DNA from: a virus
IMG/VR virus record: IMGVR_UViG_3300031834_001450
Coordinates: 1 to 64,000 of that record
Direction: 5' to 3' (one strand)
Length of the DNA stretch: 64,000 bases
The position numbers and the translations under genes were made by a program. The notes under the pieces were generated by a model. It saw only the letters and a program-made list of their open reading frames with translations. It ran no database searches and was not told the DNA's origin. Shown here piece after piece: positions 395 through 55,265 of this stretch (position 1 is its first letter; each line of letters starts with the position of its first letter).

Positions 395-604
395 TTATTT
401 TCCTTTTTCTAATTTCAAATGAAATATTTTTGGTTTATCTATAAACATTCCTTCATTATTTATTTTTCTATTTTTAAAATAATTTGATTTTTTAAAAACA
501 GTATAAAAATTAGCATTTTGTTCTCCACCACCATCTATATACTATTCAAGCCATTCATTCATATCTTTAAGAGATTTGAATTCTAAATTTAATACTTTAG
601 ACAT
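395..604 (-). pseudogene. 69-codon phage protein interrupted by an in-frame TAG at codon 21
   Basis: MSKVLNLEFKSLKDMNEWLE*YIDGGGEQNANFY...KLEKGK. Tiles exactly between its neighbours (TAA-ATG junctions at 605/604 and 395/394). Confidence 0.65.
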
Positions 605-1009
605 TTATTTATTCTCCTTTTTAGTTGTAGTATAAGAATAAGAAATATAAGTTTCTATATTAAATTCATTTCCACAATTACTACATTCTATATTCTCATC
701 TCCATCATTATAAAAATAAGAACTTTCACTATCTGGTTTATGCAAATAACCACAATATGGACAAATTGCTCCATCATCACTATATTGATAATCATCCTCT
801 TCATGTTCTTTTTGGAAGTTTTCTATTTCAGATTGTATTCTTTTCTCTTCACAATCTTGACATCTAAATCCACCAAGAGTTCCCCATCGATTCATAGTAC
901 CTAATTCTAAAGTGTGTTTTCCACAAGACAAACATACGTCATGTTTTTCACATCTATTAAAATATTCTGGTTTTGTTTCATCACATATATAACATTTTTT
1001 ATCTTTCAT
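605..1009 (-). CDS. Cys-rich zinc-finger/zinc-ribbon protein
   Basis: Multiple CxxC pairs (CYIC, CLSC, CQDC, CPYC, CSNC). Confidence 0.7.
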   Translation of the reverse strand: MKDKKCYICDETKPEYFNRCEKHDVCLSCGKHTLELGTMNRWGTLGGFRCQDCEEKRIQSEIENFQKEHEEDDYQYSDDGAICPYCGYLHKPDSESSYFYNDGDENIECSNCGNEFNIETYISYSYTTTKKENK

Positions 1010-1169
1010 TTTTTATTCTTCCTTGTTATTTTCTTTATCTATTATTTAGTGAACTAAATACAACTCTAACTATATTTATTTTATTTTATTTTTGAAATCG
1101 GTGAACCAAACATAACTCATCAATTGGTTTTATTTTATTTTTTCCTTATTTAATTTAATTTTATTTATA

Positions 1170-1223
1170 ATATATAAAATACTTTTAAAAAATTAAATTA
1201 TTTTTTAAAAGTATTTTATATAT
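1170..1223. repeat. Perfect inverted repeat (24-bp arms, 6-nt loop) overlapping an early-type promoter
   Basis: atatataaaatacttttaaaaaat-taaatt-attttttaaaagtattttatatat. Confidence 0.85.
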
Positions 1224-1224
1224 A

Positions 1225-2499
1225 TTAGGCTGTTCTTTTAATACTTAATTTATTAAATATATCTATTTTATTTATAATATTAAAATCTAATATAGTTTCT
1301 AATTGAGTATATACATTTTCCCAAAGGTATTTTTGTCCTTCTTCTTGATTTCTTTTTTTAATAATATCTAATTCAGTTAAATTTAATTGAATTACTTCTA
1401 ACATTTTTTCAACTGTTTCATTTATATTGGGTATTTTCCAATCACAGAAATAATTATTTGGTCTTATAGTAGCAACACTTGATATAGGAAAACCAAAATC
1501 TTGTATATATTGTGATATACCACCTACATTATGATATATAATAGGAAGACCATTTATCATTGCTTCCATAAATCCATATCCAAACCCTTCTGCAAGAGGC
1601 AATCCTATATAGCAATTACAACATCGATATCTTTTATATAATTCTCTTTTTGATATTTGTTCAGGCTTAGATAGTATAATATTATCTGATATTTTCAATT
1701 CATAAATCATAGATTTTATATCAGTTCCTGCATCTACTGTATCTACCATTCCATGAAGATACAATTTATATTTTTCTTTATTATCTACTTTTTGTAAAAA
1801 TTTATAAAAAGCTTCTATGACAAAATCTAATCCTTTTCTATTGAAATTATGTCCAACTGTAATAAAAACAAAATCATCCTCTTTAATTGCTCCACGAAAA
1901 ACTAATTGTTTAGTTAATTCTTCTTCTTCAAAATAAAAATTATCTAACCCATTTGGTAAAGATTCTAAAGTATTAGCTCCAAATTTATTTAATTGTATTT
2001 TACCAACTTCATTATAAGCAATAGAATAATCTATATTTTTACATATATCACTTAAAGATTTTCTTATATTTGGATCTATTTGTGTTGGATTAATTACATA
2101 TCCAGAATAGAAATCACTTTCTATTGGACAATATGCTATCCATGTAAATGTATCTCTATATGCAGATAATATGATATTTTCAAATTGCCATAAATCATGA
2201 ATTGTTAAAACTATATTAGGTTTAAATTCTTTTATACAATCATTTAAGATAGTTAAAGAATCTTGTTTTTTATTTTGACAATTATAAATTTTTGAATCAA
2301 ATAAATTTTCATAAAAGAAATGCCCTTTATTAGGAAGATCATTTATCGTACAATCTTCTCCACTCAAAATGCAATAATTTACTAAATATTCTTTTTGAAT
2401 AAAAAAATTACATAAATTCAAAGCTACATATGATAAACCAGTTATATTCTTAAATGAATCACTACATATTAATATTCGAGGACTATTTTTAGATTTCAA
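1225..2499 (-). CDS. Glycosyltransferase, GT4/GT-B fold
   Basis: TVGHNFNRKGLD and AEGFGYGFMEAMINGLPII (EX7E). Confidence 0.9.
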   Translation of the reverse strand: MKSKNSPRILICSDSFKNITGLSYVALNLCNFFIQKEYLVNYCILSGEDCTINDLPNKGHFFYENLFDSKIYNCQNKKQDSLTILNDCIKEFKPNIVLTIHDLWQFENIILSAYRDTFTWIAYCPIESDFYSGYVINPTQIDPNIRKSLSDICKNIDYSIAYNEVGKIQLNKFGANTLESLPNGLDNFYFEEEELTKQLVFRGAIKEDDFVFITVGHNFNRKGLDFVIEAFYKFLQKVDNKEKYKLYLHGMVDTVDAGTDIKSMIYELKISDNIILSKPEQISKRELYKRYRCCNCYIGLPLAEGFGYGFMEAMINGLPIIYHNVGGISQYIQDFGFPISSVATIRPNNYFCDWKIPNINETVEKMLEVIQLNLTELDIIKKRNQEEGQKYLWENVYTQLETILDFNIINKIDIFNKLSIKRTA

Positions 2500-2525
2500 A
2501 AAATTCTCCTAATGATCTATTTTTT

Positions 2526-2557
2526 AAAAAAACTCCTTTATATTTCAAAAGGAGTTT
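2526..2557 (-). terminator. Rho-independent terminator after the small virion-like gene
   Basis: aaactccttt-atatttca-aaaggagttt hairpin followed by a T-run on the minus strand. Confidence 0.7.
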
Positions 2558-2567
2558 AACTGGTGGG

Positions 2568-2849
2568 TTACACGTAAGTACCTATAATAGTAACTACATC
2601 CCCTGCTGTGAGAACATAATCGGAACTATTATTATAAATAACAACTGCTCCTGATGCAGTACTATATGCATGTTTTGTTTTAAATGAATAATCTACTTCT
2701 CCTCTTTTAATTCCAAGTGTATATGCAAAAGGATCTGTTGCATGTGCTGGAACTCCTGTACCTACAAACATAATTTTTTTTGTAGCTGTTACTTCTGCAG
2801 CAGTTACAGTGTCTTGAAGAGTTTTAACTTTTCTCCATGTTTTAACCAT
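2568..2849 (-). CDS. Small Thr/Ala/Val-rich beta-type protein, probable virion decoration protein (93 aa; likely start 2849)
   Basis: AGGGG Shine-Dalgarno before the ATG at 2849; own late-type promoter and terminator; ends ...YVLTAGDVVTIIGTYV. Confidence 0.55.
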   Translation of the reverse strand: MVKTWRKVKTLQDTVTAAEVTATKKIMFVGTGVPAHATDPFAYTLGIKRGEVDYSFKTKHAYSTASGAVVIYNNSSDYVLTAGDVVTIIGTYV

Positions 2850-2944
2850 TAAAAATACCCCCTGATAAAATTGTTTTATAAAACAATTAGGAATTACTTC
2901 CATATCATTTGATTATCGTTCATACTGTAAAGCATGAATAATAT

Positions 2945-2956
2945 TATTTATTAGTA
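2945..2956 (-). promoter_or_regulatory. Late-type promoter motif TACTAATAAATA
   Basis: Identical 12-mer lies upstream of the sheath, tape-measure and gp25-like genes. Confidence 0.6.
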
Positions 2957-4177
2957 AAAACCTTTTAAATAATATATTTCTTGGGCTGAGTTATTTAAAT
3001 CTTCACTCATATTTCCACAAGCGTAACTTTCTGTTTTGATAACAGTAGAATTTTTTAAAAGGTTTATTCCTTCTCTTTTAATATTTATTGAAGCATTTAA
3101 ATCCCTATCAATTTCTAGTCCACAATCACAAATATACGTCCGTTCTGACAATAAAAGTTCTTTCTTAACTTGTCCACAATTTGAACAAAGTTTACTACTT
3201 GGAAACCATCTGTCAGTTGTTACAAAATGTTTATTTGCTTTAAATGCTTTCCATTTGAGATTGGTTAAAAATTCTGAAAAACTAAAATCAAGTGTTACTG
3301 TTTTTGAAATACCTTTATTGAATTGCTTCATTCCTTCAATATTTAAATCCTCAAATATTAAAACATCAAACTTTGAAACTAATTCATGGGCTAAATTCCA
3401 TTGAAACCCTGTTCTTTGATTTGTAATGTTCAAATAAGTTTTAGCTAAAACCACTCTTTGTTTTTCAAAATTATTTGAATCGTTCTTTTTCTTTGAAAAT
3501 TTTCTATGTCTAATTTTTAATCTTCTTTCTTTTCTTCGATAAAATTTTTGATTTTCAAATTCCATTTCTGAACTTACAAGAAAATTTTTACAAGACATAT
3601 CAGCACTAAAAACTTTTGATTCTTGAATCTCAATTGGAAGATTTATTTCAAAATCTTTTTCAACTAAAATAGAAGCAAAGTATTGATTACATTTGTTTTT
3701 TGAAATTGTAATAGATTTTATTTTTGAATCGAAAATTCTCTTATCCTTAAATTTAATCCAATCAATTTTTGGAATTTTAATTTTTTTATTTTTAAAATCT
3801 ATTTTAAAATCCTTGGGTACTCTAAAAGAATTTTGTCTTTTATGTTTACTCTTAAATTTAGGAAAACCTAATTCTTTTTTACCTTGTTTTACTCTTCTAA
3901 AAAAGTTTAAATAGGCTTTTTCTAGATTTAAAATTGATTGCTGTAAAACCTGAGAATCTATTTCATTCATCCATTCATAACCTTCTAATTTTTTAATAAT
4001 AGTAAAATCTTTTATAGCATTATAGGCTGAATATTTTATTCCATGTTTATAGGAGTCAATTTTATAACCTAAGACTGAATTCCAAACAAATCTACAGACA
4101 CCAAAATACTTCTCAAAAGTTTCTTTTTGAATTATATTTGGATAGATTCTTATTTTATAGGCTTTATTTATTTTCAT
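2951..4177 (-). mobile_element. tnpB: IS200/IS605-family TnpB RNA-guided endonuclease, solo (no TnpA)
   Basis: N-terminal KAYKIRIYP HTH, GFPKFKSK, RuvC residues SADM / FEDLNI / RDLNASINI, zinc finger CSNCG...CDCG. Confidence 0.93.
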
Positions 4178-4186
4178 AATTTTAAT

Positions 4187-4936
4187 TTAATTGAAAGTTA
4201 TTTTATTTGAATCAAATTCATAAAAATTAGTATTATTTAAATAGTGTTTAGTATTACAACTATCTCCTCGTATTTCTTTACACCCTTCTCGAAGTAATAA
4301 TTTTCTTAATATCCAATCTGGAGCATATCTTCTATATAATTTTTCACCGTCATTTATTACTTCATAAAGATTTTGTGTTATATCTATTATATTATTTAAT
4401 ATTTTAATAGGTAAAATAAAACAACCAAAACTATCAGACATTACTTGTTTTTTAGATTTTATAATATATGGGATATTTATAATATATGGAATTATTTCTT
4501 TATTTTTTCTTTCAAGAATTTTACATAATTTATATATATCATTAGCATCAATTTTTATATCAGCATCAATATAAAAAATATAATCAAAAGAAGTAAGTAC
4601 TTTCTTAATATTCATAAACATATATATTCTTTGTTTTGCCCATCCAACTTCATGAGCATTTTTTTCATTCATATTTTCTTTATAAATAGCATCAAAAGGT
4701 AATTTTGTAACTTGTATATTATATGTTTCAAAATTAAATAAATTCTCTTCAGGGCATTCTGTGCATGATAAAATATCTTGAAGATTTTTTGTCATTTGAT
4801 TATGACAAGAAAATAATCGATAAGTAAATAAATTAGATATTTTATTATATTTAGATGACTCCATAAAATAGTTTAAATTTTCTATTTCATGACAATTATT
4901 TTGCTCTGGAAAAAGACTCATATATAAAATTTTCAA
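4187..4936 (-). CDS. Putative GT-A glycosyltransferase
   Basis: FDYIFYIDADI DxD motif, SFGC; cluster context. Confidence 0.55.
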   Translation of the reverse strand: MKILYMSLFPEQNNCHEIENLNYFMESSKYNKISNLFTYRLFSCHNQMTKNLQDILSCTECPEENLFNFETYNIQVTKLPFDAIYKENMNEKNAHEVGWAKQRIYMFMNIKKVLTSFDYIFYIDADIKIDANDIYKLCKILERKNKEIIPYIINIPYIIKSKKQVMSDSFGCFILPIKILNNIIDITQNLYEVINDGEKLYRRYAPDWILRKLLLREGCKEIRGDSCNTKHYLNNTNFYEFDSNKITFN

Positions 4937-4969
4937 CTTAACTTCTCCTTATAATTTAAAAATAATTGT

Positions 4970-5944
4970 TTAGTCTGAATATAGAGTATTCATAATTCGT
5001 TGTATAGCATTATCAAAATAATCTTCTTCTGCTAATTGTTCTGATTTTTTAAGTATTTCTTCTCTATTTGAATTTAATAATTTATCATATTGATTAACTA
5101 TTTTTTCTATATTCATATGATTATAAGTAAAATCTGGATAATATTTTGAAGCATAGCACATAGTACTGCTAATATAAGGGGTTCGTGAATAAAAAGATTC
5201 TATTATCGCTCTTCCTGGTCCTGGTCTAGCATCAGGATTTATATATACTTTTGATTTAGATAACCAAGGAATTAATCCTCGATTATTAGTAGTTATTGCA
5301 TCTTGAAATTCAATTTCAGGGTATAATGGTTGTAAAATATTTTTTCTATTTGTAGGATAAACAATTCTTTTATCTGGATATTTCTCTTTAAGCATCAACA
5401 TTATTTCAATAGCAAAGGCTAATGTTATTTCATTTCTATTAATTGATCCTGATAAAAGAATATCGATATCTCTTTGTTCATATGGTAAAGAAAAATTTAC
5501 CCTTTCAAGAAACATTCCCATATCTATAACTTTATGTTGATATCTACCAAAGAATTTCATGTGTGATGGAATTCCAGACATAATAATATCAACTTCTTTA
5601 CATAATGCTGTATATATAATACCATTTTTATTTATTAAATTATCACCTGTAAGAAATTTATAATCAGATGATATTGATAAGATTACTTTAGATCCATTTG
5701 CTTTAACTTTTCTAATAAATTCTATTTCATGTTCATAAGTATGTGTATAAGCTGAAAGTAAAATATATATATCAGCTGTCATATCTATATCTACATTATT
5801 TATATGACTTGCTCCACATTGTAATAATTTACCTAAAGCAATATTGCAATCATCATTCCAAGGTGCATTAAAATTAGGAGTAGACCATCTTCCTCCTTCT
5901 ATTGGTTGCATTATTAACCATTTTTTATCCCTATAATCTATCAA
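4970..5944 (-). CDS. Putative glycosyltransferase (GT-B-like)
   Basis: SKSKVYINP...GRAIIESFYSRTPYISS donor-binding-like motif. Confidence 0.55.
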   Translation of the reverse strand: MIDYRDKKWLIMQPIEGGRWSTPNFNAPWNDDCNIALGKLLQCGASHINNVDIDMTADIYILLSAYTHTYEHEIEFIRKVKANGSKVILSISSDYKFLTGDNLINKNGIIYTALCKEVDIIMSGIPSHMKFFGRYQHKVIDMGMFLERVNFSLPYEQRDIDILLSGSINRNEITLAFAIEIMLMLKEKYPDKRIVYPTNRKNILQPLYPEIEFQDAITTNNRGLIPWLSKSKVYINPDARPGPGRAIIESFYSRTPYISSTMCYASKYYPDFTYNHMNIEKIVNQYDKLLNSNREEILKKSEQLAEEDYFDNAIQRIMNTLYSD

Positions 5945-7583
5945 AATTATAACCTTCTTTTTTAAATTTATCTATTATTTTTTTATAAAATTCATTATTA
6001 ATTTTTAAATTATTAAACAAATTATAATGATATTCAGCTTTTTCTATATTATTTAATATTTTACTTTTAATATATATTTTATATAACATATAATGAGCAA
6101 TTGCATGACTAGGATAATGATTAACTACATTTTGAAAATAAGGTAAACAAATATCATATCTATTATTTTTATAATTAGTATTTTCTAAAAAATTTACAAT
6201 TAAATTCATATACTGAGCATATTCTTCTATTTGTTCTGGTTTTACTCCAGGTGCTTTGATATTACAATTAGATACAGTATATTTATTATAGTCAGTAGTT
6301 AGTAAATATCCATTATCTTTACATTGTTGATATAATCGGCTTCCAGCAATAGGAACAACAATAAATATATGAGCCCAATCTATCCCTATATCAAGTAATA
6401 AATCTAAAGTTTCTTTTCTATGTTTATCATATTCATTGGGAAAACCAATTACAATAAATGCATGAAGTCTTATATTATATTTTTTTAATAATTTTACAGC
6501 TTTATATATTTGTTCTTTTTTAAGAGGTTTATTTATTATTTTATGTAAAACATATTCTGACCCAGATTCAATAGCTAAAGGAAGTAATTTTATTTTAGTA
6601 TCTGCCAATGCTTTTGCTATTTCTTCATCTATTTTAAAAACAGCAATACCATTAGGGAATTCTATATTAATATTTAATTTTCTAATTTCTTCTAATAAAT
6701 ATAAAGCTCTTTCTTTATTAGCAAGAAAATGATCATCTTCAATAAGAAGAGTATTCATTTTATAATTATTAATGTAATATTTAATAGTTTCTAAAAATCT
6801 TTCATTAGACATTATTCTAATTTTTTTACCATGAACGATATAATTACTACAATAACAACAATTATAAGGGCATCCACGTGAAGTATGAATACTTACTTCT
6901 ATTTTATTAGAATCTTTATCTACATAAGATCGTCCATTATATTTTTTTAAATTTATATAAGTAAAATTAATAATTGGAATATCATCAAGATTATAAATAA
7001 AATCATATTCAGGTTTAATATTTAATTTTAATGATTTTTTTGTTATTAAAGATTTACTTATTTCATGTACTTGCTTATTCTCTTTATCATCTAATAATTT
7101 TTTAAAAGGTAATTCTCCTTCACCATAACATAGAATATCAATACAAGAAATTTCAGTAAATAAATCTTCATATAAATTTGTAGCTAATCCACCACCAATA
7201 ATAAGAATATTTTCTGGTAATATTTCTTTAATTATAGGACATAAATATTTCATATGAGGAAAACTAGTATTAAATAGAGCTGAAATACAGATGTATTTAG
7301 GATCAAAAGATTTTAATTTTATTGTAACTATGTTAATAATATATTCTTGATATTTATTTACTTCTAAATTGGGTGTATTTAATATCTCATAATTTAAATC
7401 TAAAATTTCTATATTATATTCTTTATTTTGATTTATGTATGAAATAATAGATAATACTCCATAAGGTGGTGTTAAGGTTGGTAATTTTTGTCCTACTTTA
7501 GAAGGTTTATATTCATCAAATGGAAGATAGGGAGGAATTATAAATAATATTTTATTGTTGAGCATGTATATCCAACCATCCAA
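5931..7583 (-). CDS. Cobalamin-binding (class B) radical SAM methyltransferase
   Basis: PPYGVLSI B12-binding N-domain, GEGE, TSRGCPYNCCYC. Confidence 0.9.
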   Translation of the reverse strand: MDGWIYMLNNKILFIIPPYLPFDEYKPSKVGQKLPTLTPPYGVLSIISYINQNKEYNIEILDLNYEILNTPNLEVNKYQEYIINIVTIKLKSFDPKYICISALFNTSFPHMKYLCPIIKEILPENILIIGGGLATNLYEDLFTEISCIDILCYGEGELPFKKLLDDKENKQVHEISKSLITKKSLKLNIKPEYDFIYNLDDIPIINFTYINLKKYNGRSYVDKDSNKIEVSIHTSRGCPYNCCYCSNYIVHGKKIRIMSNERFLETIKYYINNYKMNTLLIEDDHFLANKERALYLLEEIRKLNINIEFPNGIAVFKIDEEIAKALADTKIKLLPLAIESGSEYVLHKIINKPLKKEQIYKAVKLLKKYNIRLHAFIVIGFPNEYDKHRKETLDLLLDIGIDWAHIFIVVPIAGSRLYQQCKDNGYLLTTDYNKYTVSNCNIKAPGVKPEQIEEYAQYMNLIVNFLENTNYKNNRYDICLPYFQNVVNHYPSHAIAHYMLYKIYIKSKILNNIEKAEYHYNLFNNLKINNEFYKKIIDKFKKEGYNFDRL

Positions 7584-8232
7584 AACTTAAATTTTCTCTA
7601 TCTAATCCTCGTAATTCATTAAATTTTATATACCTATCTAAAGCGATATCAGCACTAACCCATTTATCTAAAGGAAGTAATTGCCCAAATAAACCTGAAC
7701 TTAATGGTGTATTATTGGCCTGATTTCTTAACTGAAAATATTTATACCCAGCTTTTTGAAGATTTATAAATAAATGCATATAATCTATTTTATTTAATTC
7801 AAAAGAAACAAATTTAGGTTTTTCTTTAGCAAACCTTAAATGAAAGGAAGTTATTATATCACAACCTTCTATATCAACTTTCATATAATATGGTATTCCA
7901 TACTTTTCAAAAAGACTACTTATATTTATTGACTCAACTATTATTTTAGTACTTGTTTCTCCATCTTGTTCTGCAATATGTTGATAGATACTTCCCCATT
8001 CTAATTTAGTTGGATGAATATAAAAATCTATTTTAGTTATTTCATCAGATACTACATTATTTAAAAGAATTAATTGACCTTTATTTATTTCATCTTTAAA
8101 TTTTTTATTTCCTATTTCAGTTAAATTGGGGTTACCTTCTACTGCTATTACTTTAAATCCCTGCTCTAAATAATAAGCAGTATCTGTACCATCACAAAAA
8201 CCTAAATCAAATATTAATTTATTGTTTTGCAT
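7552..8232 (-). CDS. FkbM-family methyltransferase
   Basis: FDLGFCDG...VIAVEGNP...YMKVDIEGCD. Confidence 0.85.
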   Translation of the reverse strand: MQNNKLIFDLGFCDGTDTAYYLEQGFKVIAVEGNPNLTEIGNKKFKDEINKGQLILLNNVVSDEITKIDFYIHPTKLEWGSIYQHIAEQDGETSTKIIVESINISSLFEKYGIPYYMKVDIEGCDIITSFHLRFAKEKPKFVSFELNKIDYMHLFINLQKAGYKYFQLRNQANNTPLSSGLFGQLLPLDKWVSADIALDRYIKFNELRGLDRENLSFGWLDIHAQQ

Positions 8233-8242
8233 CTTAACCTCT

Positions 8243-9091
8243 TTATCTACTACAATACCATGGAGAAATTATAGGATTTCCAGCAAAAGCATATTGATGT
8301 GGAGCTTGATCTCTTAAAGAATTTATTTGTTTTTTTGCACACATCATTACATAATATATATTATCAGATAACTGTCCAAAACTATTTTTACCAAAAAAAT
8401 AAGGATCATATTCAATTAATCTATAATAATCCCATCTATCGACAAAAAAAGTAGATCTTGAATATTTATTTGGAAGTAATTCTAAAATAATATTATTTAT
8501 TATTTCATATTTATTCGTCAGATAATAATCATTAAATAATGTTGGAGAAAATTGATAAAATCCATGATCCATAGTATTATTAGCTGGTAATATATGTATT
8601 ATATATCCTTCAGGAGTTAATAAATCAGTAGAATTTAAAAATACACTACGTATATCAAATACATGTTCCATTACTCCTGCGTCAATAACTAGATTATATC
8701 TTTTATCAATAATATCAATAATACCTTTATTATTTAAATTAAAAATAATTGTTGCTGTACCTTGAACATCAATTGAATCCATTATTTCAAAACCTAAAGC
8801 TGTATAAAAAAGAGTATCACTTATACAAGGATATGCTATTACTGTTTGTTTTGAAAGACTCATATGTTTATGTTGTTCAATTAAGTTCTTAACAGCAGTA
8901 TCTATTTTTGAATCAAAAAATTTTAATGTAGTATTAACATAATATGCTAATTCATATTTTATCATTAATTTTTCAAATTGTTCAAAATTAATAAAATAAT
9001 CTAATCTTCCTAAACTTAATATTGATCCTGTTATATTATTTTCTTTACATGTTTTAATTGTATATTCTATTTGAGGAAGTAATAATCCCAT
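8243..9091 (-). CDS. Class I SAM-dependent methyltransferase-like protein
   Basis: YNLVIDAGVMEHVFD...GYIIHILP...DHGFYQFSP. Confidence 0.7.
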   Translation of the reverse strand: MGLLLPQIEYTIKTCKENNITGSILSLGRLDYFINFEQFEKLMIKYELAYYVNTTLKFFDSKIDTAVKNLIEQHKHMSLSKQTVIAYPCISDTLFYTALGFEIMDSIDVQGTATIIFNLNNKGIIDIIDKRYNLVIDAGVMEHVFDIRSVFLNSTDLLTPEGYIIHILPANNTMDHGFYQFSPTLFNDYYLTNKYEIINNIILELLPNKYSRSTFFVDRWDYYRLIEYDPYFFGKNSFGQLSDNIYYVMMCAKKQINSLRDQAPHQYAFAGNPIISPWYCSR

Positions 9092-9102
9092 TTTAATATT
9101 TC

Positions 9103-10107
9103 CTAAAAATTATATTTTTTTATTAATTCTTCTGCATAATTATCTATATTTGATGGCATACCTTTTTTTAATTGATCACAATTTTTACAATAACGATGTG
9201 ATTTACGTTTGCCTTCTAACATAAAATTTCTAAAATTTTTTAATTGTTCTCCATTCCATATATCATAAATTGAAGTAGTATTAATATCTCCTATTTTCAA
9301 TTTTCTATTCCAATCTAAAAAACAAGAAGATACCAATCCATCACTATGTATAAAAAGAGAATACATTATATATGGACAAACCAGAGCTTCTTCTTTGAGT
9401 GATTGTCCATAAATTCCTATAGTATCATCTGATCTTAAAAATCCTTTTGGTTTAAAACTTTGCCAACAGGCCATAGATTTTTCAACTGCTACTGCATCCG
9501 CAATTGGTTCAAATATTTCTAAAAATTTTTGTTCATCCTCTTTAGAAATTGTATCTCCATTTATTTTTATAAATATATAACACTGTTTTTTATTTTCATA
9601 TAAATGTTTTATATGCTCAACATATTTTTTAAAATCTATTTTAACTCTAGTAAATTTGTGATATTGTTCATCACTCAATCCATTAACTGAAATATTTATT
9701 CTATCTATTCCTGATGCAATTAATTCTAAGTTTAATTGAGGATATAAACAAATAGCATTAGTTGTAGTATCTACCATTTCTACTCTATTTGATTGTTTAG
9801 CATATTTAATCATTCTACTAAAATTAATATTAAGTAGTGGTTCACCATGTCCATAAAGTCTAACTACTTTAATTTTAGTTTTAAATTGTAATAGATCATC
9901 TATAATTGAAGTAAATAATGAAAAATTCATTGATTGTAAGGGACGATTAACTTTCTTCATTAATTTTTTATCAGAGGTTGGACAAAATAAACATTTAAGA
10001 CAGCACCAATCAGAAGGGTCTATAAAAAGTACTAATGGAGCCTCTAATGGCAATAGAGTTTCTAATGGTTTTCTATTTTCAAGAATAATACGAGTTCCAA
10101 TAGTCAT
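9103..10107 (-). CDS. Radical SAM protein with SPASM/twitch domain
   Basis: CCLKCLFC, GHGEPLLN, C-terminal CPY...DGLVSSC...IGDIN...IWNG...CKNC. Confidence 0.9.
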   Translation of the reverse strand: MTIGTRIILENRKPLETLLPLEAPLVLFIDPSDWCCLKCLFCPTSDKKLMKKVNRPLQSMNFSLFTSIIDDLLQFKTKIKVVRLYGHGEPLLNINFSRMIKYAKQSNRVEMVDTTTNAICLYPQLNLELIASGIDRINISVNGLSDEQYHKFTRVKIDFKKYVEHIKHLYENKKQCYIFIKINGDTISKEDEQKFLEIFEPIADAVAVEKSMACWQSFKPKGFLRSDDTIGIYGQSLKEEALVCPYIMYSLFIHSDGLVSSCFLDWNRKLKIGDINTTSIYDIWNGEQLKNFRNFMLEGKRKSHRYCKNCDQLKKGMPSNIDNYAEELIKKYNF

Positions 10108-10120
10108 TGATTTTTCAACC

Positions 10121-11227
10121 TCAAATAGTTTGTATTAATATTGATATAAAGGCATTTAGATTTTCATTTGTTGTTGTTGTATATTCATTAAAATCAATAG
10201 GAATTACTTCTGATTGTTCAGTAATAAAAAAATTCCAAGTATGTGGATCTGTATGATTGGTAGAATTATATTTTGTAAGTTGAGTTTTTATTTTAAATCT
10301 ATCATAATAAGGAAGTAATCCAAATTTAATTATATCACTTAATAAAAATCCATTAATAAATTTTGATTTTTTAGTTAAAACATTATTAATAAATTTTAAA
10401 AAATATTTTTCATTTAATATATCTTTTGCAAAAGCATATGATATTCCTTGTTTTTCTCTTTTTCCATGAGCTAGTTTTCCTTGAGGAGTTAAAGAAAAAT
10501 CTCCAAAGTCTATATAAGGCAATAAAAATCTATCATAAATAATTCCCGTAAATAATTCAGTTTCTATTTTTTCTGAAATATGTTTTTTTAATTGAAATAA
10601 TGGTCTAAGACTCCCTATATGAGTTTTATGTACACCAATAAGTCTAACTGTATGAGTTAAAAATTGATTAGTTATATAATTAAATAATGTGTGAATAGGG
10701 GAAAGAGATTCATAATCTTCAGGAAGTAGTTTATTTGCCCAACTAGGTGATTCATTACAATGCGCTAATTCTAAATAAATAGTAGTTGAGTTTTTTATTT
10801 TTTCATAAACTTCATTGGGTAATTTATAATTTTTTTGAAAATGATGTAGGGTTGATAAAATAATATGAGATTCATAATTTTCAGGAATTGCTTCTGGTAT
10901 TATACCAGTTAAAAATTCTACATTTTTAATTTGATTAAATTTTCTTATTTCATTACATAATAATATATTATTATAGTCGTAATCAATAGCAGTTATTATT
11001 TTTTTTGTTTTTTCTGCTAATTTAAAAGAAAAATAACCAAGACTACATCCCCAATCACAAATACTACCTTCAAACATTTTATTGTTATTATATCCTTCTT
11101 CTGCTTGTAGAATAGTTTTCCATCTATCATTACTATTTCTTTTATACTCTTGTACTTCATTAAAATTATAAATAGGTTGATATAACTCTGCAATTTCAAA
11201 GGGTATATTATTATAAATTATTTGCAT
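10121..11227 (-). CDS. WbdD-like methyltransferase with a C-terminal kinase-like remnant
   Basis: ELYQPI...DRW...DWGCSLGYFS...LSTLHH...LELA...THIGSLRP resembles the WbdD MTase; HTDPHTWN...IDF is a kinase-like motif. Confidence 0.6.
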   Translation of the reverse strand: MQIIYNNIPFEIAELYQPIYNFNEVQEYKRNSNDRWKTILQAEEGYNNNKMFEGSICDWGCSLGYFSFKLAEKTKKIITAIDYDYNNILLCNEIRKFNQIKNVEFLTGIIPEAIPENYESHIILSTLHHFQKNYKLPNEVYEKIKNSTTIYLELAHCNESPSWANKLLPEDYESLSPIHTLFNYITNQFLTHTVRLIGVHKTHIGSLRPLFQLKKHISEKIETELFTGIIYDRFLLPYIDFGDFSLTPQGKLAHGKREKQGISYAFAKDILNEKYFLKFINNVLTKKSKFINGFLLSDIIKFGLLPYYDRFKIKTQLTKYNSTNHTDPHTWNFFITEQSEVIPIDFNEYTTTTNENLNAFISILIQTI

Positions 11228-11229
11228 TA

Positions 11230-12534
11230 CTATTTATTCATTATTTTTTGAAATTTATTTAAATATTTATCATTAGGAAAATATTGTAGATATTGTTTTA
11301 TACTACCTTTACTGGTTGATTGCCACTGTAAATTAGAATTAAATATGTTTTCTATTTGTTGTTCATAAGTTATATATTTTTGAAATGCAGTAGCTATTTT
11401 ATAATCTAATGATTCTAAAAAAGCTATTGTACCTTCTCCATACATATCTTTAAAATTAGTAAACCATTGTCTTTCTTTTTTAGGTAAAAGAATAACTTCA
11501 TTAAATAATTTATTCCAATCATTAATCATTATTTCTATTGAATATTTTTCTTGCGCACTTATTGAAGCATTTAAAGAAATAGAAGATGTAGTTAATTTAT
11601 CTTTATCATTATATATTTGTTGTACAACGGACAAACATTCATCATCAGTTGATATTATATAACCATTTATATTATTTTCTACTATTTGTTTTTCACATTT
11701 ATTTCTAAATACAACTGGAATAATTCCACTAGCCATAACTTCACCAAGTATTTGCTCTGCTGTTCCAAAATGAGTTGGTTCTAATAAATATAAAAATATA
11801 TCTGCTATTTCAAAATAAGGAATTAAATTTTTAACTAACCCTGCAAATATAAATTTATCTCTAATTCCATAAAATTCAGTTTGTTCTATAATTTCTTGTT
11901 CAGAAGACCCAGTTCCACAAATAATAAAATTTGCTTCTGGTATTTGTTTACTTATTCTAAAACAAACTTCAACAAAATTATTATACATTTTTGCAAAATC
12001 TAAAGTACCTACATAAAGTATATTAAATCCTTCATGTTTATTTTGTTTTATATCTTTATATTTTTCTATTCCTCCTGTAGACCAAATGCATCCTAATTTA
12101 TCTTTTGATTCTTTAGGTAAATTAGTAATTACTTCTAACTCATAACTTATAGGAGAAGTAAATATAAACTTATCTGAATATTCTATTATTTCTTTTGGTA
12201 AATTATATGGTGCATAAAAACCAGAATTATGAAACCATGTTATAACTCTACATTTAGGTAAAGTTTTTTGTATTAAAAAATCTAATAGTAATGGAAAATT
12301 CCAATAATGAATAACAACTATATCTGCAAAATCTTGTACATATTTACAAATTAAATTATATTCTGCATTACTAAATATTTTAATATTATTTTTATTACAG
12401 AGCTGCTCTACTTGTTCATCTGCATATCCTAATGACATAAATATATGATTATTAATATTATCATTAATTGCCCAACTAAGAAGCACAACCTTAACGCCTC
12501 CTCCAAGATGTGGAACTAGATGTAGTATGTTCAC
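11230..12534 (-). CDS. Glycosyltransferase, GT4
   Basis: MNILHLVPHLGGG, ILYVGTLDFAK, GEVMASGIIPVV. Confidence 0.85.
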   Translation of the reverse strand: MNILHLVPHLGGGVKVVLLSWAINDNINNHIFMSLGYADEQVEQLCNKNNIKIFSNAEYNLICKYVQDFADIVVIHYWNFPLLLDFLIQKTLPKCRVITWFHNSGFYAPYNLPKEIIEYSDKFIFTSPISYELEVITNLPKESKDKLGCIWSTGGIEKYKDIKQNKHEGFNILYVGTLDFAKMYNNFVEVCFRISKQIPEANFIICGTGSSEQEIIEQTEFYGIRDKFIFAGLVKNLIPYFEIADIFLYLLEPTHFGTAEQILGEVMASGIIPVVFRNKCEKQIVENNINGYIISTDDECLSVVQQIYNDKDKLTTSSISLNASISAQEKYSIEIMINDWNKLFNEVILLPKKERQWFTNFKDMYGEGTIAFLESLDYKIATAFQKYITYEQQIENIFNSNLQWQSTSKGSIKQYLQYFPNDKYLNKFQKIMNK

Positions 12535-13580
12535 TTACTTCTCTCCTTTGGTATACAGTACATTACTGCTCCTTGCCCCATATAGTTATGATTTCTCCAA
12601 TAAAAATTATAATTTTTAAGATTCTTAATTAAATATAGTGGAAGTTTATATAATCCTTCTTTTGTATGATAAGTAGTAACTGCTATAATTGGTCTATATT
12701 TTTTAATAGTTTTAATTGATCCTTTAATTGCTTCTAATTCATATCCTTCTAAGTGATATTTGATAAAAGTTGGTGTAAGTTCAATATTATCTAATTTATT
12801 TATTGGAACTTTATTTTTTGATCTTTTATCTACTTTTGATAAATATTTACAATTATTGAAATTGACATAACCTTTCTTATTTCCAAGTGCTATATTATAT
12901 AAATATAAAAATTCTATATCCCCTATTGATTGAGAAAGATTAAAACAATTTTCTAAATCAGGTTCAAAACAATAAATTGAATTAAATCTACCATGTATAT
13001 TTTCAATAAATTTTTTAATGACTCTTCCATCATAAGTACCTACATCTACAAATACTTCATGATCATGTAATACAGATATAATTTCAGGAATAAAATATCT
13101 ATTATTACAATTTATTGTTTGATTATATAGAAATTCAGTATAATAAATATGCCAATGAATAAAGGAATAATACTGTTTAATTGAAGCTTCATCATTTAAA
13201 TTATGTGCAACTTTATCACAATAGATTTCTTCTGATTCTTTCCATTTTTCTTTTCTCCATCCATTAGTTAAAGGGTGTTTATAATCATTAGCTTTATTTA
13301 TTTCTTCAGCTACTTCAAAGAATGATTTAATATTATTAAATCCCTTATTTTGTAATTTATTTAATATCTCTATATATGAAGTAGTAGAGATACAAATAAT
13401 AACTAAAGGATTATCTTCAATAATAATATCTTCTATTCTAAATATATTTTCATTTTGTGGGGTATCTTCACATAAAATATATTTAATATTGTAAAAATCA
13501 AAGAATTGACTAGCTAATTTACCAAGTTCTCCTGCTCCATATAAGATATATTTTTGATTATTTTCTTTTTTGTTCTGCAT
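12531..13580 (-). CDS. FkbM-family methyltransferase with an N-terminal Rossmann-like domain
   Basis: LYGAGELG; FVDVGTYDG, FEPD, FIKYHLEGYE. Confidence 0.85.
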   Translation of the reverse strand: MQNKKENNQKYILYGAGELGKLASQFFDFYNIKYILCEDTPQNENIFRIEDIIIEDNPLVIICISTTSYIEILNKLQNKGFNNIKSFFEVAEEINKANDYKHPLTNGWRKEKWKESEEIYCDKVAHNLNDEASIKQYYSFIHWHIYYTEFLYNQTINCNNRYFIPEIISVLHDHEVFVDVGTYDGRVIKKFIENIHGRFNSIYCFEPDLENCFNLSQSIGDIEFLYLYNIALGNKKGYVNFNNCKYLSKVDKRSKNKVPINKLDNIELTPTFIKYHLEGYELEAIKGSIKTIKKYRPIIAVTTYHTKEGLYKLPLYLIKNLKNYNFYWRNHNYMGQGAVMYCIPKERSK

Positions 13581-14589
13581 GTATCATTTCTTCAATTATA
13601 GTATCAATTGTATACTGTACTTGCCAATTTAAAAATTGTTTTGCTTTTGAATTATCTCCTATAAGATTATCAACTTCACATGGTCGATAAAATTTATTAG
13701 ATATTTCTATAATTTTTACATTATCTATTGTTGCATATTCTTCTATTCCTTTATTTTCATTATGCCATATTAAATTTAAATTTAATTTATTACAAATTTT
13801 ATTAATAAAATTTTTAATACTAATTGATTCTCCACTAGAAAGAATAAAATCATTTGGAATAGATTGTTGTAACATTAACCACATTCCATTTACTATATCT
13901 TTAGCGTGAGAAAAATCTCTTTCTGAATAAATATTACCTATTTTTAAAGGAAGAAATCCTCTATCTTCAATAATGCTTTTTTGTATTTTATATAATTCTT
14001 TTACGCATTTTTGAGAAATAAATTCTATTCCTCTTAATGATCCTGTATGATTAAACGAAATACTATTACTTATAAACATTCCATAACTTTCTCTATAGTT
14101 TATTCCTAAATAAAAACTAGCAACTTTTGATACTCCATAAGGGCTACGAGGATAAAAAGGAGTTGTTTCTGTTTGAGGAATTTCTTTAACTTTACCAAAC
14201 ATTTCACTAGTTGCTGCAAAACATATCTTTGTATTAAAACTATAATTTTTAACTGCTTCTAATATATTTAAATGTCCATAATAATTTACATCATTTGTAA
14301 CATATGGCATTTCAAATGAAGATCCTACAAAACTTTGTGCAGCTAATTGATATAATTCATTAGGTTTATATTTTTTTATAATAGAATTAACATTGTTTTG
14401 TTCTGTAATATCCATATATTCATAAATTAAATATGGATGATTGGCAATACCTAATTCTTCTAATCTCCAATTACTTGAACCTCCACTTCTTCTATCTGTT
14501 CCAATAATTCTATACCCTTTATCTAAAAGAAGTTTTGTTAACCAAGCGGCATCTTGTCCTCTTATACCAGTTATTAAAGCAGTTTTCAA
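13558..14589 (-). CDS. gmd: GDP-mannose 4,6-dehydratase
   Basis: ALITGIRGQD, LAAQSFV, ATSEMFG, PFYPRSPYGVSK, RPCEVDNLIGD. Confidence 0.95.
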   Translation of the reverse strand: MKTALITGIRGQDAAWLTKLLLDKGYRIIGTDRRSGGSSNWRLEELGIANHPYLIYEYMDITEQNNVNSIIKKYKPNELYQLAAQSFVGSSFEMPYVTNDVNYYGHLNILEAVKNYSFNTKICFAATSEMFGKVKEIPQTETTPFYPRSPYGVSKVASFYLGINYRESYGMFISNSISFNHTGSLRGIEFISQKCVKELYKIQKSIIEDRGFLPLKIGNIYSERDFSHAKDIVNGMWLMLQQSIPNDFILSSGESISIKNFINKICNKLNLNLIWHNENKGIEEYATIDNVKIIEISNKFYRPCEVDNLIGDNSKAKQFLNWQVQYTIDTIIEEMIHAEQKRK

Positions 14590-14592
14590 AAA

Positions 14593-15723
14593 TTATTCTC
14601 CTATGAGTTTATTTATTTGTTCAATAAAATTTTTTTTACCAAATTTTTTAATAATTTCAAGATCATTATTATTAGTATTCATATAATATTCTTGTTTATT
14701 TAACTTCCACATATTATAACAATCTCTTAAATTTTTAATAATATCTTTTATTGATGGAATAGCATAAATTGAATTTGATTCATACTCATAATGAGACATA
14801 CCTTGAGCAGTATCAAGAATACAAGAGATAGATTTATTTCCCTTAAATTTTCCAGTTTCAATAGTTGATGACCAATTCGTATAAATGCAAGGTAATCCAA
14901 TCATTCCAGCTTCTATTAAAGGTAATCCAAATCCTTCACCTCTAGAAGGAAATAATAATATAGATGATTCTGTATATAGAGAATAAATTTCATCTTTATT
15001 TAAATTTTGAGTAATTTCATAAATTTTTGCTTTCATTTCTTTTGAATTTGTACTAACTAATGTTTTTAATAATAATGGAATTTCTAACTCTTTATTAGAT
15101 AGTGGATGATATTTTAATATCAATCTACAATCTTTATATTGAGATAATGCATGTAAAAATCCTATTATTGCATCTTCCATTCCTTTTCTTTTAGTATATT
15201 GCCCTATATATAAAACAGTAAATATATTTTCATTATTTTTATTTTCTATTTTTATTTTATATTTAGAAAAATCATCTTTAAATATTGGGCAATATATAAG
15301 ATGATTTTCTTTATTTGTTCCTTTTATTTCATCTTTAATCATATCATAAATAAATTTAGATGGTGATATAAATCCAGTAAATAAATTAGATGCCCATAAC
15401 CATTTCCACTTAGAAGGTAAAGGAATAGTTTCCCAAAATAAATGTAAATAAATTTTAATACATGAAGTTGTAACTTGTTCTATATTTTGTTTAACTATTT
15501 TATTTTCAAATGATAATGGATGAGTTAATATAATACAAATATCATATTTATTAACAATATTCTTATATATTCCCATACTTAATTCATTTATATTTATATA
15601 AGTTACTTCTATATTTTCTATAATATCAAACATTTTCTTAAATGATTCTGCTATCACTCCATATCCACCATTTTGTGCTAAAATAAATTCTTCATATGGT
15701 GAAATATATAAAATTTTTTTCAT
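14593..15723 (-). CDS. Glycosyltransferase, GT4
   Basis: YIGQYTKRKG, PSRGEGFGLPLIEAGMIGLP. Confidence 0.9.
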   Translation of the reverse strand: MKKILYISPYEEFILAQNGGYGVIAESFKKMFDIIENIEVTYININELSMGIYKNIVNKYDICIILTHPLSFENKIVKQNIEQVTTSCIKIYLHLFWETIPLPSKWKWLWASNLFTGFISPSKFIYDMIKDEIKGTNKENHLIYCPIFKDDFSKYKIKIENKNNENIFTVLYIGQYTKRKGMEDAIIGFLHALSQYKDCRLILKYHPLSNKELEIPLLLKTLVSTNSKEMKAKIYEITQNLNKDEIYSLYTESSILLFPSRGEGFGLPLIEAGMIGLPCIYTNWSSTIETGKFKGNKSISCILDTAQGMSHYEYESNSIYAIPSIKDIIKNLRDCYNMWKLNKQEYYMNTNNNDLEIIKKFGKKNFIEQINKLIGE

Positions 15724-15746
15724 CTATTCTTTATCCCTTACTATTT

Positions 15747-16019
15747 TTATTTATTATTTAAAATTATTTTAAATTTATGCCAAATTTGTGGAAGTACTAA
15801 TGACCAAAAATTATGTTTAAAATTTATACAATTATTATTTTTATTTTGAGGATAAGAAAAAGGGCGTTTTTGTATACAAATATAAGTTGGTATTAATTTT
15901 AAAGTATTTAAAAATTTATTATTATAAGAAATAGTACTACTACTACTACTATTATAATAAATTCTATAATATTTACATTTTTTACAAAATGTAATTTTAT
16001 TCATTTTTATTTTTTCCAA
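15747..16019 (-). CDS. Hypothetical Cys-containing protein
   Basis: ORF in operon orientation, CKKCKY. Confidence 0.45.
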   Translation of the reverse strand: MEKIKMNKITFCKKCKYYRIYYNSSSSSTISYNNKFLNTLKLIPTYICIQKRPFSYPQNKNNNCINFKHNFWSLVLPQIWHKFKIILNNK

Positions 16020-16101
16020 TAATAAGGTTTATTTTTTCAAAAATACTGTAAAAGAATTCCATTTAGTTTTAAACAGATAATAATAATTAAGTTTAATAAT
16101 T

Positions 16102-17400: not shown

Positions 17401-17432
17401 CTTTAATCTCCTTTATTTAATTTTTTATAATT

Positions 17433-55254: not shown

Positions 55255-55265
55255 TAAATTTTTCC

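Follow-up and report, generated by a model that had tools for sequence, protein, structure and literature searches.

The O-polysaccharide of Escherichia coli O9a is made by an ABC-transporter-dependent pathway in which GT4 glycosyltransferases using GDP-sugars (WbdA, WbdB and WbdC) build the chain wholly in the cytoplasm, and WbdD, a two-domain methyltransferase-kinase with a conserved catalytic loop, terminates it. Viruses encode comparable enzymes: in chloroviruses and mimiviruses, a GDP-mannose 4,6-dehydratase (GMD), glycosyltransferases and methyltransferases encoded by the virus itself serve to glycosylate the particle. To our knowledge, neither radical SAM enzymes nor a WbdD-type capper form part of the glycosylation systems of mycobacteriophages, chloroviruses or mimiviruses. 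In mycobacteriophages, subunits of the capsid and of the tail tube are reported to bear glycans (Freeman et al. 2023, cited in PMC12619734). For pelagimyophages and cyanomyophages, a host recognition cluster, which is a hypervariable island with tail-fibre genes, and LPS-gene islands have been published (PMC7029224).

Here we analyse a glycan-enzyme cluster in a 64,000-nucleotide stretch (the window) of an 83-kb contig from an uncultured sediment phage, using as comparison genome a relative, G001, whose 155.6-kb genome is complete. As in ABC-transporter-dependent O-polysaccharide loci, the cluster combines cytoplasmic GT4 chain-builders with a two-domain terminator that keeps the catalytic loop, and we propose that its chain is likewise made wholly in the cytoplasm; it differs in that the terminator is 368 aa long without a coiled-coil ruler or membrane-binding end, in that Wzm/Wzt and a primer enzyme are absent, and in the additional presence of GMD, FkbM enzymes and two radical SAM enzymes. 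As in virion glycosylation systems, virus-encoded soluble glycosyltransferases, methyltransferases and sugar-nucleotide enzymes lie near structural genes, with GMD shared with the giant viruses; there the products decorate particle proteins, whereas here such a target is proposed, and the comparisons made detected no homology of the cluster enzymes to mycobacteriophage or giant-virus glycosylation enzymes. With the pelagimyophage and cyanomyophage islands the locus shares a myovirus with T4-type tail genes and large glycosyltransferase and LPS-type sets with radical SAM cassettes beside structural genes (PMC7029224). It differs from them in being divergent from the sheath gene and in that its sequences have diverged between the two phages no more than their genomes have on average (median 61% versus 64.5%), with differing gene content. 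No tail-fibre genes were found inside the cluster.

Enzymes of the glycan cluster

The cluster occupies ~14.5 kb of tightly packed genes on the minus strand (1225-15723) and is divergent from the tail sheath gene (17685-19835) on the opposite strand, as an earlier sequence-only reading of this DNA had stated. The glycan-enzyme block described in that reading proved real: Pfam and NCBIfam searches, fold comparison and a WbdD profile together identify three GT4 glycosyltransferases, one GT-B glycosyltransferase, GMD, two FkbM methyltransferases, a B12 and a SPASM radical SAM enzyme and a WbdD-like methyltransferase-kinase, all on this strand. A TnpB insertion and the gene of a conserved 93-aa protein lie within the same interval.

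The block opens with a GT4 glycosyltransferase of 376 aa (14593-15723; Pfam Glycos_transf_1, 46 bits; 70% identical to its G001 homologue), followed by the GMD (13558-14589), which matches Pfam GDP_Man_Dehyd over its full length with 331 bits, in agreement with the gmd gene recognised earlier. The other two GT4 enzymes are of 434 aa (11230-12534; Glycos_transf_1, 70 bits) and 424 aa (1225-2499; 63 bits; 65% identity in G001). The fourth glycosyltransferase (4970-5944) belongs to a family without a Pfam model, no Pfam domain being found in it or in any of its 20 relatives. Its AF2 model (pLDDT 90.8) has two Rossmann-like domains as in solved GT-B enzymes and gave Foldseek matches to SenB, BshA, Asp1, MshA and TarM (E about 1e-8), those to SenB and BshA with a probability of 1.0 and TM about 0.64; its G001 homologue matches Glycos_transf_1 weakly. 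Four of the five glycosyltransferases originally proposed are thus supported, while the fifth, a conserved 249-aa protein (4187-4936; 56% identity in G001), had no match in Pfam, PHROG, NCBIfam or PDB and yielded a weak 'putative glycosyltransferase' lead in the Atlas.

Two of the three methyltransferases proposed earlier belong to the FkbM family by both Pfam and NCBIfam, one with a 170-aa N-terminal extension (12531-13580) and one of 226 aa (7552-8232; 68% identity in G001). The third, a 282-aa protein (8243-9091) with no counterpart in G001, is possibly a class I methyltransferase, its matches to Methyltransf_12 and Methyltransf_23 being sub-threshold (E 0.007 and 0.056). Both radical SAM enzymes were recovered by Pfam. 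The radical SAM/SPASM enzyme (9103-10107; Radical_SAM and SPASM) is the best-conserved protein of the cluster, with 73% identity in G001, 45-55% across many bacterial and archaeal phyla, and invariant CxxxCxxC cysteines (C35, C39 and C42). The class B enzyme (5931-7583) has an N-terminal B12-binding domain (46 bits) and a radical SAM core (74.5 bits) with the CxxxCxxC motif CPYNCCYC; it has no counterpart in G001, its top NCBIfam match (138 bits) lies far under every equivalog cut-off, and it is probably a methylase.

We tentatively favour, at somewhat less than an even chance, a reading in which a 6-deoxyhexose glycan, methylated and capped with methylphosphate, is assembled in the cytoplasm late in infection on a phage protein that joins the particle. 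In this pathway, whose sugar chemistry, whole-block timing and acceptor we infer, GMD would convert host GDP-mannose to GDP-4-keto-6-deoxymannose, and the three GT4 enzymes and the new GT-B enzyme, perhaps with the 249-aa protein, would make an oligo- or polysaccharide. The two FkbM enzymes, perhaps with the 282-aa protein, would O-methylate it, the B12 radical SAM enzyme would C-methylate a sugar and the SPASM enzyme would oxidise or epimerise one; the WbdD-like enzyme would then phosphorylate the terminal sugar and methylate the phosphate, capping the chain. The methylated deoxysugar pathway supposed in the sequence-only reading is plausible, and its soluble, cytoplasmic character is supported. 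The prime candidate acceptors would be the embedded 93-aa protein and tail proteins.

A short WbdD-like protein and soluble enzymes

The WbdD-like protein (10121-11227), with a Pfam methyltransferase match (Methyltransf_31) and a weak kinase match, bears a real likeness to WbdD at the sequence level, as had been proposed for it. Its N-terminal SAM-dependent methyltransferase domain (residues 6-192) matched WbdD in a phmmer search of the PDB (E 1.6e-9), and the family profile aligns with WbdD across both domains (E 3.5e-86). The kinase domain contains the HxDxxxxN catalytic loop and the metal-binding Asp, with D327, W331, N332 and D345 invariant among 17 sequences, but only 23 residues follow D345 and the C-lobe is much reduced. 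Full-length relatives measure 337-375 aa, as against 569 residues even in truncated crystallised WbdD constructs, and the phage protein, which ends at residue 368, contains no coiled-coil ruler, membrane helix, membrane-binding region, or hydrophobic or long extra segment. The loss of anchor and ruler, by which WbdD is held at the membrane, is new here and favours a phage-protein target. Against such a target, we know of WbdD-type capping solely for chains built on undecaprenyl diphosphate. As a lead only, the nearest Atlas clusters of the protein are viral.

The cluster enzymes look soluble, with Kyte-Doolittle values of at most 1.6 in 19-residue windows and a single exception, a peak of 1.87 at residue 395 of the B12 radical SAM enzyme, close to the end of its radical SAM domain. 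HMM searches of the 83-kb contig and the complete G001 genome gave no match to the families of the ABC-2 permease (PF01061, used for Wzm/Wzt), WecA/MraY, WbaP, Wzx or Wzy/WaaL, while control genomes matched; tblastn with cellular Wzm and Wzt gave no match in the window. These searches bear out the earlier statement that no flippase, Wzy, exporter or priming transferase is visible, and the hydropathy scan answers the question of transmembrane segments, which the sequence-only reading had left to prediction, in favour of solubility. Both results favour a phage-protein target. The main argument of that reading, which went from missing membrane parts to a protein target, is nevertheless weak, because the cellular relatives lie in surface-polysaccharide loci, some with Wzm/Wzt, and because in the ABC-exporter pathway soluble GT4 chain-builders work on a lipid primer, which here could come from the host.

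A cassette from cellular surface-polysaccharide loci

Five genes of the cluster, encoding the SPASM radical SAM enzyme, both FkbM enzymes, the B12 radical SAM enzyme and the 434-aa GT4 enzyme, correspond to a cassette that bacteria and archaea of many phyla share, within surface-polysaccharide loci; this correspondence is new here. All five have phage homologues with 30-55% identity to the cellular proteins. Among 80 cellular loci, relatives of the GT4 enzyme occur in 68 and of the B12 radical SAM enzyme in 21, relatives of the longer FkbM enzyme adjoin the SPASM gene in 47, an RmlC-like gene is present in 61, Wzm and Wzt together in at least five, and NeuB in one. In one locus annotated in full, the cassette comes after genes for Wzm and Wzt, for a 6-deoxyhexose pathway and for a rhamnosyl O-methyltransferase. 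The cellular cassette is contiguous and accompanied by NDP-6-deoxyhexose genes, whereas in the phage its genes are rearranged, and GMD, additional glycosyltransferases and the WbdD-like gene stand among them. By homology, the core of the cluster was taken from such cellular loci, and this counts against a phage-protein target, as does the finding that no protein O- or N-glycosyltransferase is recognisable among the cluster enzymes and that a search for a Ser/Thr-tract acceptor found none.

The main alternative, which we consider real but doubtful, is that the host undecaprenyl-diphosphate primer receives a capped polysaccharide, new or altered, from the phage enzymes and that a host ABC exporter and ligase display the product on the cell surface; superinfection would then be blocked, or progeny kept from sticking to infected cells or debris. 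The recurrence of the cassette in bacterial and archaeal surface-glycan loci, including those with Wzm and Wzt, and the extension of WbdD homology over both domains are consistent with such a role, and since GT4 enzymes are soluble or peripheral in that pathway, the absence of membrane genes is no counter-argument. Conversion of the host surface is also the published reading for glycosyltransferase-rich pelagimyophage islands (PMC7029224). However, no phage primer enzyme, exporter or ligase was found even in the complete G001 genome, the WbdD-like protein is without the anchor and ruler, and late expression, suggested by a tail-type motif inside the block and a variant in front of it (see below), fits this role poorly. 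Known phage seroconversion modules, moreover, are small and membrane-bound.

Separation from the DNA-sugar locus

The window also holds a hydroxymethylase, glycosyltransferase and sugar locus (51.7-58.7 kb), 36 kb from the glycan cluster. G001 keeps the cluster, but a search of its genome found no thymidylate-synthase-like hydroxymethylase (PF00303) and no homologue of the 51.7-58.7 kb locus, and the two loci are therefore separate, as the sequence-only reading, which placed them more than 35 kb apart, had supposed. We consider it very improbable that the cluster enzymes act on phage DNA, lengthening and decorating a sugar carried by a modified base. Glycans on phage DNA can contain as many as three sugars, and genes for secondary glycosyltransferases, epimerases and a kinase-like protein lie close by (bioRxiv 10.1101/2023.12.21.572611), and another phage contig (L006) encodes GT-B and WbdD-like homologues with an NDP-aminosugar pathway ~7 kb from a DNA-methylase-like gene. 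In the present phage, however, at least four glycosyltransferases, two radical SAM enzymes and a capping enzyme surpass known DNA glycan pathways, and replication genes do not adjoin the cluster.

An embedded small protein behind a tail-type promoter motif

Within the cluster, a gene on the minus strand (2568-2849) encodes a 93-aa Thr/Val/Ala-rich protein without a signal peptide and with a predicted beta-sandwich fold (AF2 pLDDT 81.7), which is conserved at the same position in G001 (62% identity) and has 10 database relatives. Its fold matches are weak (Z of at most 6.0), which counts against a phage-protein target; proteins of the phage tail, baseplate and neck account for many of them. Upstream of the gene lies the 13-mer TACTAATAAATAA (2944-2956, minus strand), which occurs exactly four times in the window, its remaining copies standing ahead of the sheath, tape-measure and gp25-like (baseplate-wedge) genes. 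The motif had 15 matches in G001 versus one in the control, 14 of the 15 just 5' of a co-oriented ORF, and by its distribution it is a genuine promoter-like signal there. A promoter motif common to tail genes would thus drive the embedded gene, which is new here. At the head of the block, the candidate promoter core TAATAAATAA (15747-15756, minus strand) ends 23 nt 5' of the first glycosyltransferase start codon; it is one of only 10 exact copies in the window and, with its flanks, agrees with the tape-measure promoter at 21 of 23 positions, suggesting a promoter function.

Assembly on a phage protein is favoured by the tail-type motif within the cluster and its variant before the first glycosyltransferase, by the embedding of a small beta-sandwich gene, late by its motif, which both lineages have kept at the same position, and by the divergent orientation of cluster and tail operon in the two phages alike; in G001, motifs stand back to back where the sheath gene meets the cluster-bearing strand. 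Against it, the late timing is read only from a sequence motif, and in G001 that motif also precedes several genes for which no structural role is known.

It is unlikely that the product is instead a glycosylated small protein, peptide or small molecule acting in or outside the infected cell, for example the 93-aa protein as a heavily modified, RiPP-like or lectin-like product. Peptide maturation is a common role of SPASM and B12 radical SAM enzymes in the NCBIfam match lists, and directly after the embedded gene comes the 424-aa GT4 enzyme, whose top NCBIfam match is TIGR04157, by name a radical-SAM-associated glycosyltransferase family, at 48 bits, well under the cut-off. The 93-aa sequence, though, has no Cys or leader-like region and its predicted fold is compact; the cellular cassette accompanies sugar-nucleotide genes, and the two fully annotated cellular loci showed no gene noted as encoding a precursor peptide.

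Downstream of the 93-aa gene, an 8-bp hairpin with a T-run (2526-2557, minus strand) was read from the sequence; the hairpin is kept in G001 through one compensatory pair (T-A to C-G), while the T-run is absent there. The TnpB (IS605 OrfB) insertion (2951-4177, minus strand; Pfam OrfB_IS605, HTH and TNB) lies outside the pathway, and its site is uninterrupted at the same place in G001.

Gene content of the glycan cluster

The window covers the initial 64 kb of a viral IMG/VR contig of 83,334 bp (CheckV completeness 54%) and has a GC content of ~23%; sediment metagenomes from at least nine studies contain the stretch. A contractile tail module on the plus strand at 17.7-34 kb encodes sheath, tube, tape measure, baseplate hub, and gp25-like and gp6-like wedge proteins, and the closest sheath among GenBank phages, that of a Campylobacter phage, is merely 27% identical. 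The glycan cluster (1225-15723, minus strand) lies on the strand opposite to the sheath gene and is transcribed away from it, and comprises 12 close-packed or overlapping genes together with a TnpB gene and a small ORF. A megablast search of GenBank phages with the cluster as query returned no match.

Pfam and NCBIfam searches identified, all on the minus strand, three GT4 glycosyltransferases (14593-15723, 11230-12534, and 1225-2499), a GDP-mannose 4,6-dehydratase (GMD; 13558-14589, 331 bits), two FkbM methyltransferases (12531-13580 and 7552-8232), a B12-binding radical SAM enzyme (5931-7583), a radical SAM/SPASM enzyme (9103-10107), and a WbdD-like methyltransferase with a weak kinase match (10121-11227). 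The gmd gene, both FkbM methyltransferases, and both radical SAM enzymes named in the sequence-only reading are thus borne out by family matches. The 324-aa product of 4970-5944 (minus strand) matched no family; its AlphaFold model (18 relatives, pLDDT 90.8) has a clear GT-B fold resembling SenB, BshA, Asp1, MshA, and TarM, which brings the glycosyltransferases in the cluster to four. Five had been claimed: the three GT4 enzymes and, by fold, the GT-B protein stand, while the presumed fifth (4187-4936, minus strand, 249 aa) is conserved and matched nothing. The gene read as a further methyltransferase (8243-9091, minus strand, 282 aa) gave a sub-threshold match only and is at best a possible methyltransferase. 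Searches of PHROGs, NCBIfam, Pfam (up to E 5), and PDB sequences yielded nothing usable for these two genes, nor for a 93-aa protein (2568-2849, minus strand), a 90-aa ORF (15747-16019), or a lipoprotein (16102-17400).

A complete relative retains the cluster with altered gene content

Two further viral contigs represent the same phage as the window, one with 99.5% nucleotide identity across window positions 1-17583 and the other matched solely via an identical WbdD-like protein. A more distant relative, IMGVR_UViG_3300032397_000003 (hereafter G001), is a complete genome of 155,573 bp bounded by terminal repeats; the two phages share 81% identity in the sheath and 96% in the tube, and the median for proteins across the whole genome is ~64%. 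G001 carries a syntenic cluster that likewise diverges from the sheath gene. Common to both are the three GT4 enzymes, GMD, both FkbM methyltransferases, the SPASM radical SAM enzyme, the GT-B protein, the 249-aa protein, for whose G001 homologue a sub-threshold DUF1647 match was all that was obtained, and the 93-aa protein, with identities that include just 43% for GMD and 73% for the SPASM enzyme. G001 has no counterpart of TnpB, the 282-aa gene, the B12 radical SAM gene, or the WbdD-like gene, and in turn has two genes of its own, an SDR and a gene fragment carrying a TPP-binding motif; cluster content thus varies by cassette. Sequence hypervariability of the cluster was considered and rejected, as the median identity between the two phages is 61% within the cluster versus 64.5% elsewhere.

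The genes unique to G001 occupy a segment (10987-12990 of L008, the stretch of G001 carrying its cluster) inserted before the homologue of the 249-aa gene, the SDR gene encoding an epimerase/reductase and the first 63 residues of the TPP-binding-motif ORF duplicating the start of that homologue. The TnpB gene of the window (2951-4177, minus strand) is placed exactly between the stop codon of the 249-aa gene and a promoter-like 13-mer ahead of the 93-aa gene, its own stop codon overlapping the 13-mer. As the site is uninterrupted in G001, the TnpB insertion is recent, and it has broken no gene.

The cluster lacks membrane machinery and is independent of the DNA-sugar locus

HMM searches of the 83-kb contig and of complete G001 for ABC-2 permeases, WecA/MraY-type and WbaP-type transferases, Wzx flippases, and Wzy/WaaL found none, while control genomes did match in the same searches. 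None of the cluster proteins has a convincing membrane segment. The earlier impression that membrane and export genes are missing therefore holds, now for a complete genome as well.

A separate locus at 51.7-58.7 kb of the window encodes a dCMP deaminase, a thymidylate-synthase-like enzyme, a GIY-YIG nuclease, a methyltransferase, an SDR, a UDP-glucose dehydrogenase, and a dUTPase-like protein. G001 has a homologue of none of these genes and no PF00303 gene whatsoever, and it retains the glycan cluster, indicating that the cluster is independent of that pathway, as had been proposed. DNA as the target of the cluster is accordingly a reading to which we give very little credence. Within window 49007-58729, the whole dCMP-hydroxymethylase and sugar locus is missing from G001, and the family-A DNA polymerases of the two phages are just 27% identical; the replication and DNA-modification module has thus been exchanged between phages with 96% identical tail tubes.

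The WbdD-like protein lacks the ruler and the membrane-binding end

WbdD is the two-domain methyltransferase-kinase chain terminator of E. coli O9a. As a single sequence, the WbdD-like phage protein matched WbdD crystal structures with an E-value of 1.6e-9 across the methyltransferase domain. Among 1.8 billion representative proteins scanned in full with HMMER, a dozen were relatives over the full length (337-375 aa) and many were longer proteins of 500-1100 aa, in a few of which both halves aligned. A profile built from 17 relatives matched WbdD with an E-value of 3.5e-86 and reached through the kinase catalytic loop, with D327, W331, N332, and D345 invariant; the WbdD likeness proposed from sequence alone thus holds. 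Unlike WbdD, the phage protein ends 23 residues past the metal-binding Asp and lacks both the coiled-coil ruler and the membrane-binding end. Its sequence thus describes a WbdD-type catalytic core from which two defining features of the family are absent.

A short WbdD-like protein (52% identity) also occurs in another phage contig, IMGVR_UViG_3300029288_004214, where a compact six-gene set (126-6285 of that locus) encodes an SDR, a GT-B protein (39% identical to 4970-5944), the WbdD-like protein, a sugar nucleotidyltransferase, a 4,6-dehydratase, and a DegT aminotransferase. The set is an aminodeoxysugar module complete in itself, with one glycosyltransferase.

The core genes belong to a cassette widespread in cellular polysaccharide loci

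Hundreds of proteins are related to the SPASM radical SAM enzyme at 45-55% identity. Taking one genome per species gave 80 cellular loci, from organisms including Halarcobacter, Arcobacter, Brachyspira, candidate-phyla bacteria, Prochlorococcus, Pelagibacterales, Lachnospiraceae, Methanospirillum, and Promethearchaeota. The best cellular matches (52-53%) were to Halarcobacter and Arcobacter, and we rejected a host assignment on this basis because many other phyla scored equally. Beside the radical SAM gene, a homologue of the GT4 gene 11230-12534 was found in 68 of the 80 loci, of the FkbM gene 12531-13580 in 47, of the B12 radical SAM gene in 21, and of the second FkbM gene in 8, mostly in one orientation. 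SPASM radical SAM, FkbM, (FkbM), (B12 radical SAM), and GT4 thus recur as a cassette at ~50% identity in more than 10 phyla, within 6-deoxyhexose surface-glycan loci; we found no described function for it.

Neighbours across the loci included RmlC-like proteins (61/80), sugar nucleotidyltransferases (49/80), C-methyltransferases (31/80), and CmcI-type O-methyltransferases (28/80), and at least five loci carried both Wzm and Wzt, the ABC polysaccharide exporter. In a Falkowbacteria locus the cassette is preceded by a GMD-like gene, an SDR, Wzm, Wzt, and an NDP-6-deoxyhexose pathway with a C-methyltransferase, RmlC, and RmlD, and followed by a rhamnosyl O-methyltransferase and a GT2; in Halarcobacter it accompanies NeuB, a cytidylyltransferase, an aminosugar pathway, and a GT2. 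These loci place the origin of the phage core in surface-polysaccharide gene sets centred on 6-deoxyhexoses.

This residence in polysaccharide loci, some with Wzm/Wzt, favours conversion of the host surface, in which the target would be a host surface polysaccharide. WbdD-type capping is, moreover, known solely on lipid-linked chains, and the soluble GT4 enzymes of such a pathway require no membrane genes of their own. To our knowledge, large LPS-like gene sets have been known in lytic myoviruses for about 20 years and their product has never been demonstrated. Islands of glycosyltransferase and LPS-type genes with radical SAM cassettes lie beside structural genes in pelagimyophages and cyanomyophages, and host conversion is the published view of the similar pelagimyophage islands (PMC7029224). 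We regard it as a serious possibility, at roughly a third of our overall belief; if true, a lytic phage would rewrite an entire polysaccharide via the host exporter.

A small protein within the cluster follows a tail-type promoter motif

The 93-aa protein is Thr/Val/Ala-rich, has no Cys and no signal peptide, and is encoded between the 249-aa gene and the last glycosyltransferase gene, in the same position as in G001 (62% identity); ten relatives were found in databases. It was modelled as a small beta-sandwich (pLDDT 81.7) whose fold matches were weak and included many phage tail, baseplate, and neck proteins, none of them significant (best E 0.048 in Foldseek PDB, best E 0.013 in BFVD, best Z 6.0 in VIA-align). 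The model thus depicts a generic beta-sandwich without family assignment.

The window contains exactly four copies of the 13-mer TACTAATAAATAA, which precede the sheath, tape-measure, gp25-like, and 93-aa genes. In G001 the motif TACTAATAAWWAA gave 15 matches versus one for a reversed control, and 14 of the 15 lie immediately upstream of a co-oriented ORF, including the sheath gene, the gp25-like gene, and the small-protein gene; a back-to-back motif pair separates the sheath gene from the cluster-bearing strand. A copy of the 10-nt motif core ends 23 nt upstream of the first glycosyltransferase gene of the window and, with its flanks, shares 21 of 23 positions with the promoter of the tape-measure gene. 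Judging from the tail genes that carry the motif, expression would be late. The motif was rejected as a marker of structural genes alone, since most other genes that it leads in G001 are without known function and one is DHH phosphoesterase-like.

A hairpin lies 3' of the small-protein gene (window 2526-2557, minus strand), with a counterpart at ~14135-14170 of L008 in which a single compensatory change (T-A to C-G) preserves the pairing. Of the two, only the window version has the T-run needed for a terminator.

A phage protein as the favoured acceptor

We lean, at a little under even confidence, towards a phage protein as the acceptor of the glycan. Even the complete genome has no priming or export genes, and both anchor and ruler are gone from the WbdD-like protein. 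A promoter motif of the tail type occurs within and ahead of the block, a small, putatively late protein is conserved inside it, and the cluster adjoins the tail operon in both phages; mycobacteriophages and giant viruses provide precedents. Should a virion protein prove to be the acceptor, phages would make O-antigen-style capped protein glycans without a lipid carrier. A more specific and rather unlikely form of the phage-protein reading has the 93-aa beta-sandwich or a tail protein bearing a methylated glycan with an O-antigen-type methylphosphate cap; the phage would coat itself with a bacterial-style capped polysaccharide made without lipid carrier or exporter, the truncated WbdD acting as a soluble capper adapted to a protein-linked chain. 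Targets other than phage protein, host surface, or DNA seem improbable.

A WbdA/WbdD pair has been noted in an Asgard virus preprint. New here are a viral WbdD with two domains but no anchor, five genes traced to a widespread cellular cassette, a conserved and putatively late small protein, and a clean dissociation of the cluster from DNA modification. Experimental handles are offered by a complete relative genome without any export or priming genes, by the anchorless viral version of an O-antigen chain terminator, by the five-gene radical SAM/methyltransferase/GT4 cassette found in many bacterial and archaeal phyla, and by the small protein behind a tail-gene promoter motif, which is a candidate acceptor. 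We know of no one who has studied the chemistry of the cassette.

Other genes flanking the cluster and in the tail region

Directly downstream of the cluster, 605-1009 (minus strand) encodes a protein of 134 aa that has 11 Cys residues and several CxxC pairs of zinc-ribbon-like type, and whose matches are confined to PHROGs of unknown function. Between the tail operon and the cluster, 16102-17400 (minus strand) encodes a 432-aa protein that bears a classic lipoprotein signal, a lipobox (LISC) followed by a Gly/Ser/Asn-rich linker, and has no homologue in complete G001. In the distal tail region, the ORFs 29452-30792 and 31195-32466 (plus strand) form a tandem paralogue pair, both members of which match a single G001 gene (100,575-101,861), at 47% and 59% identity, respectively.
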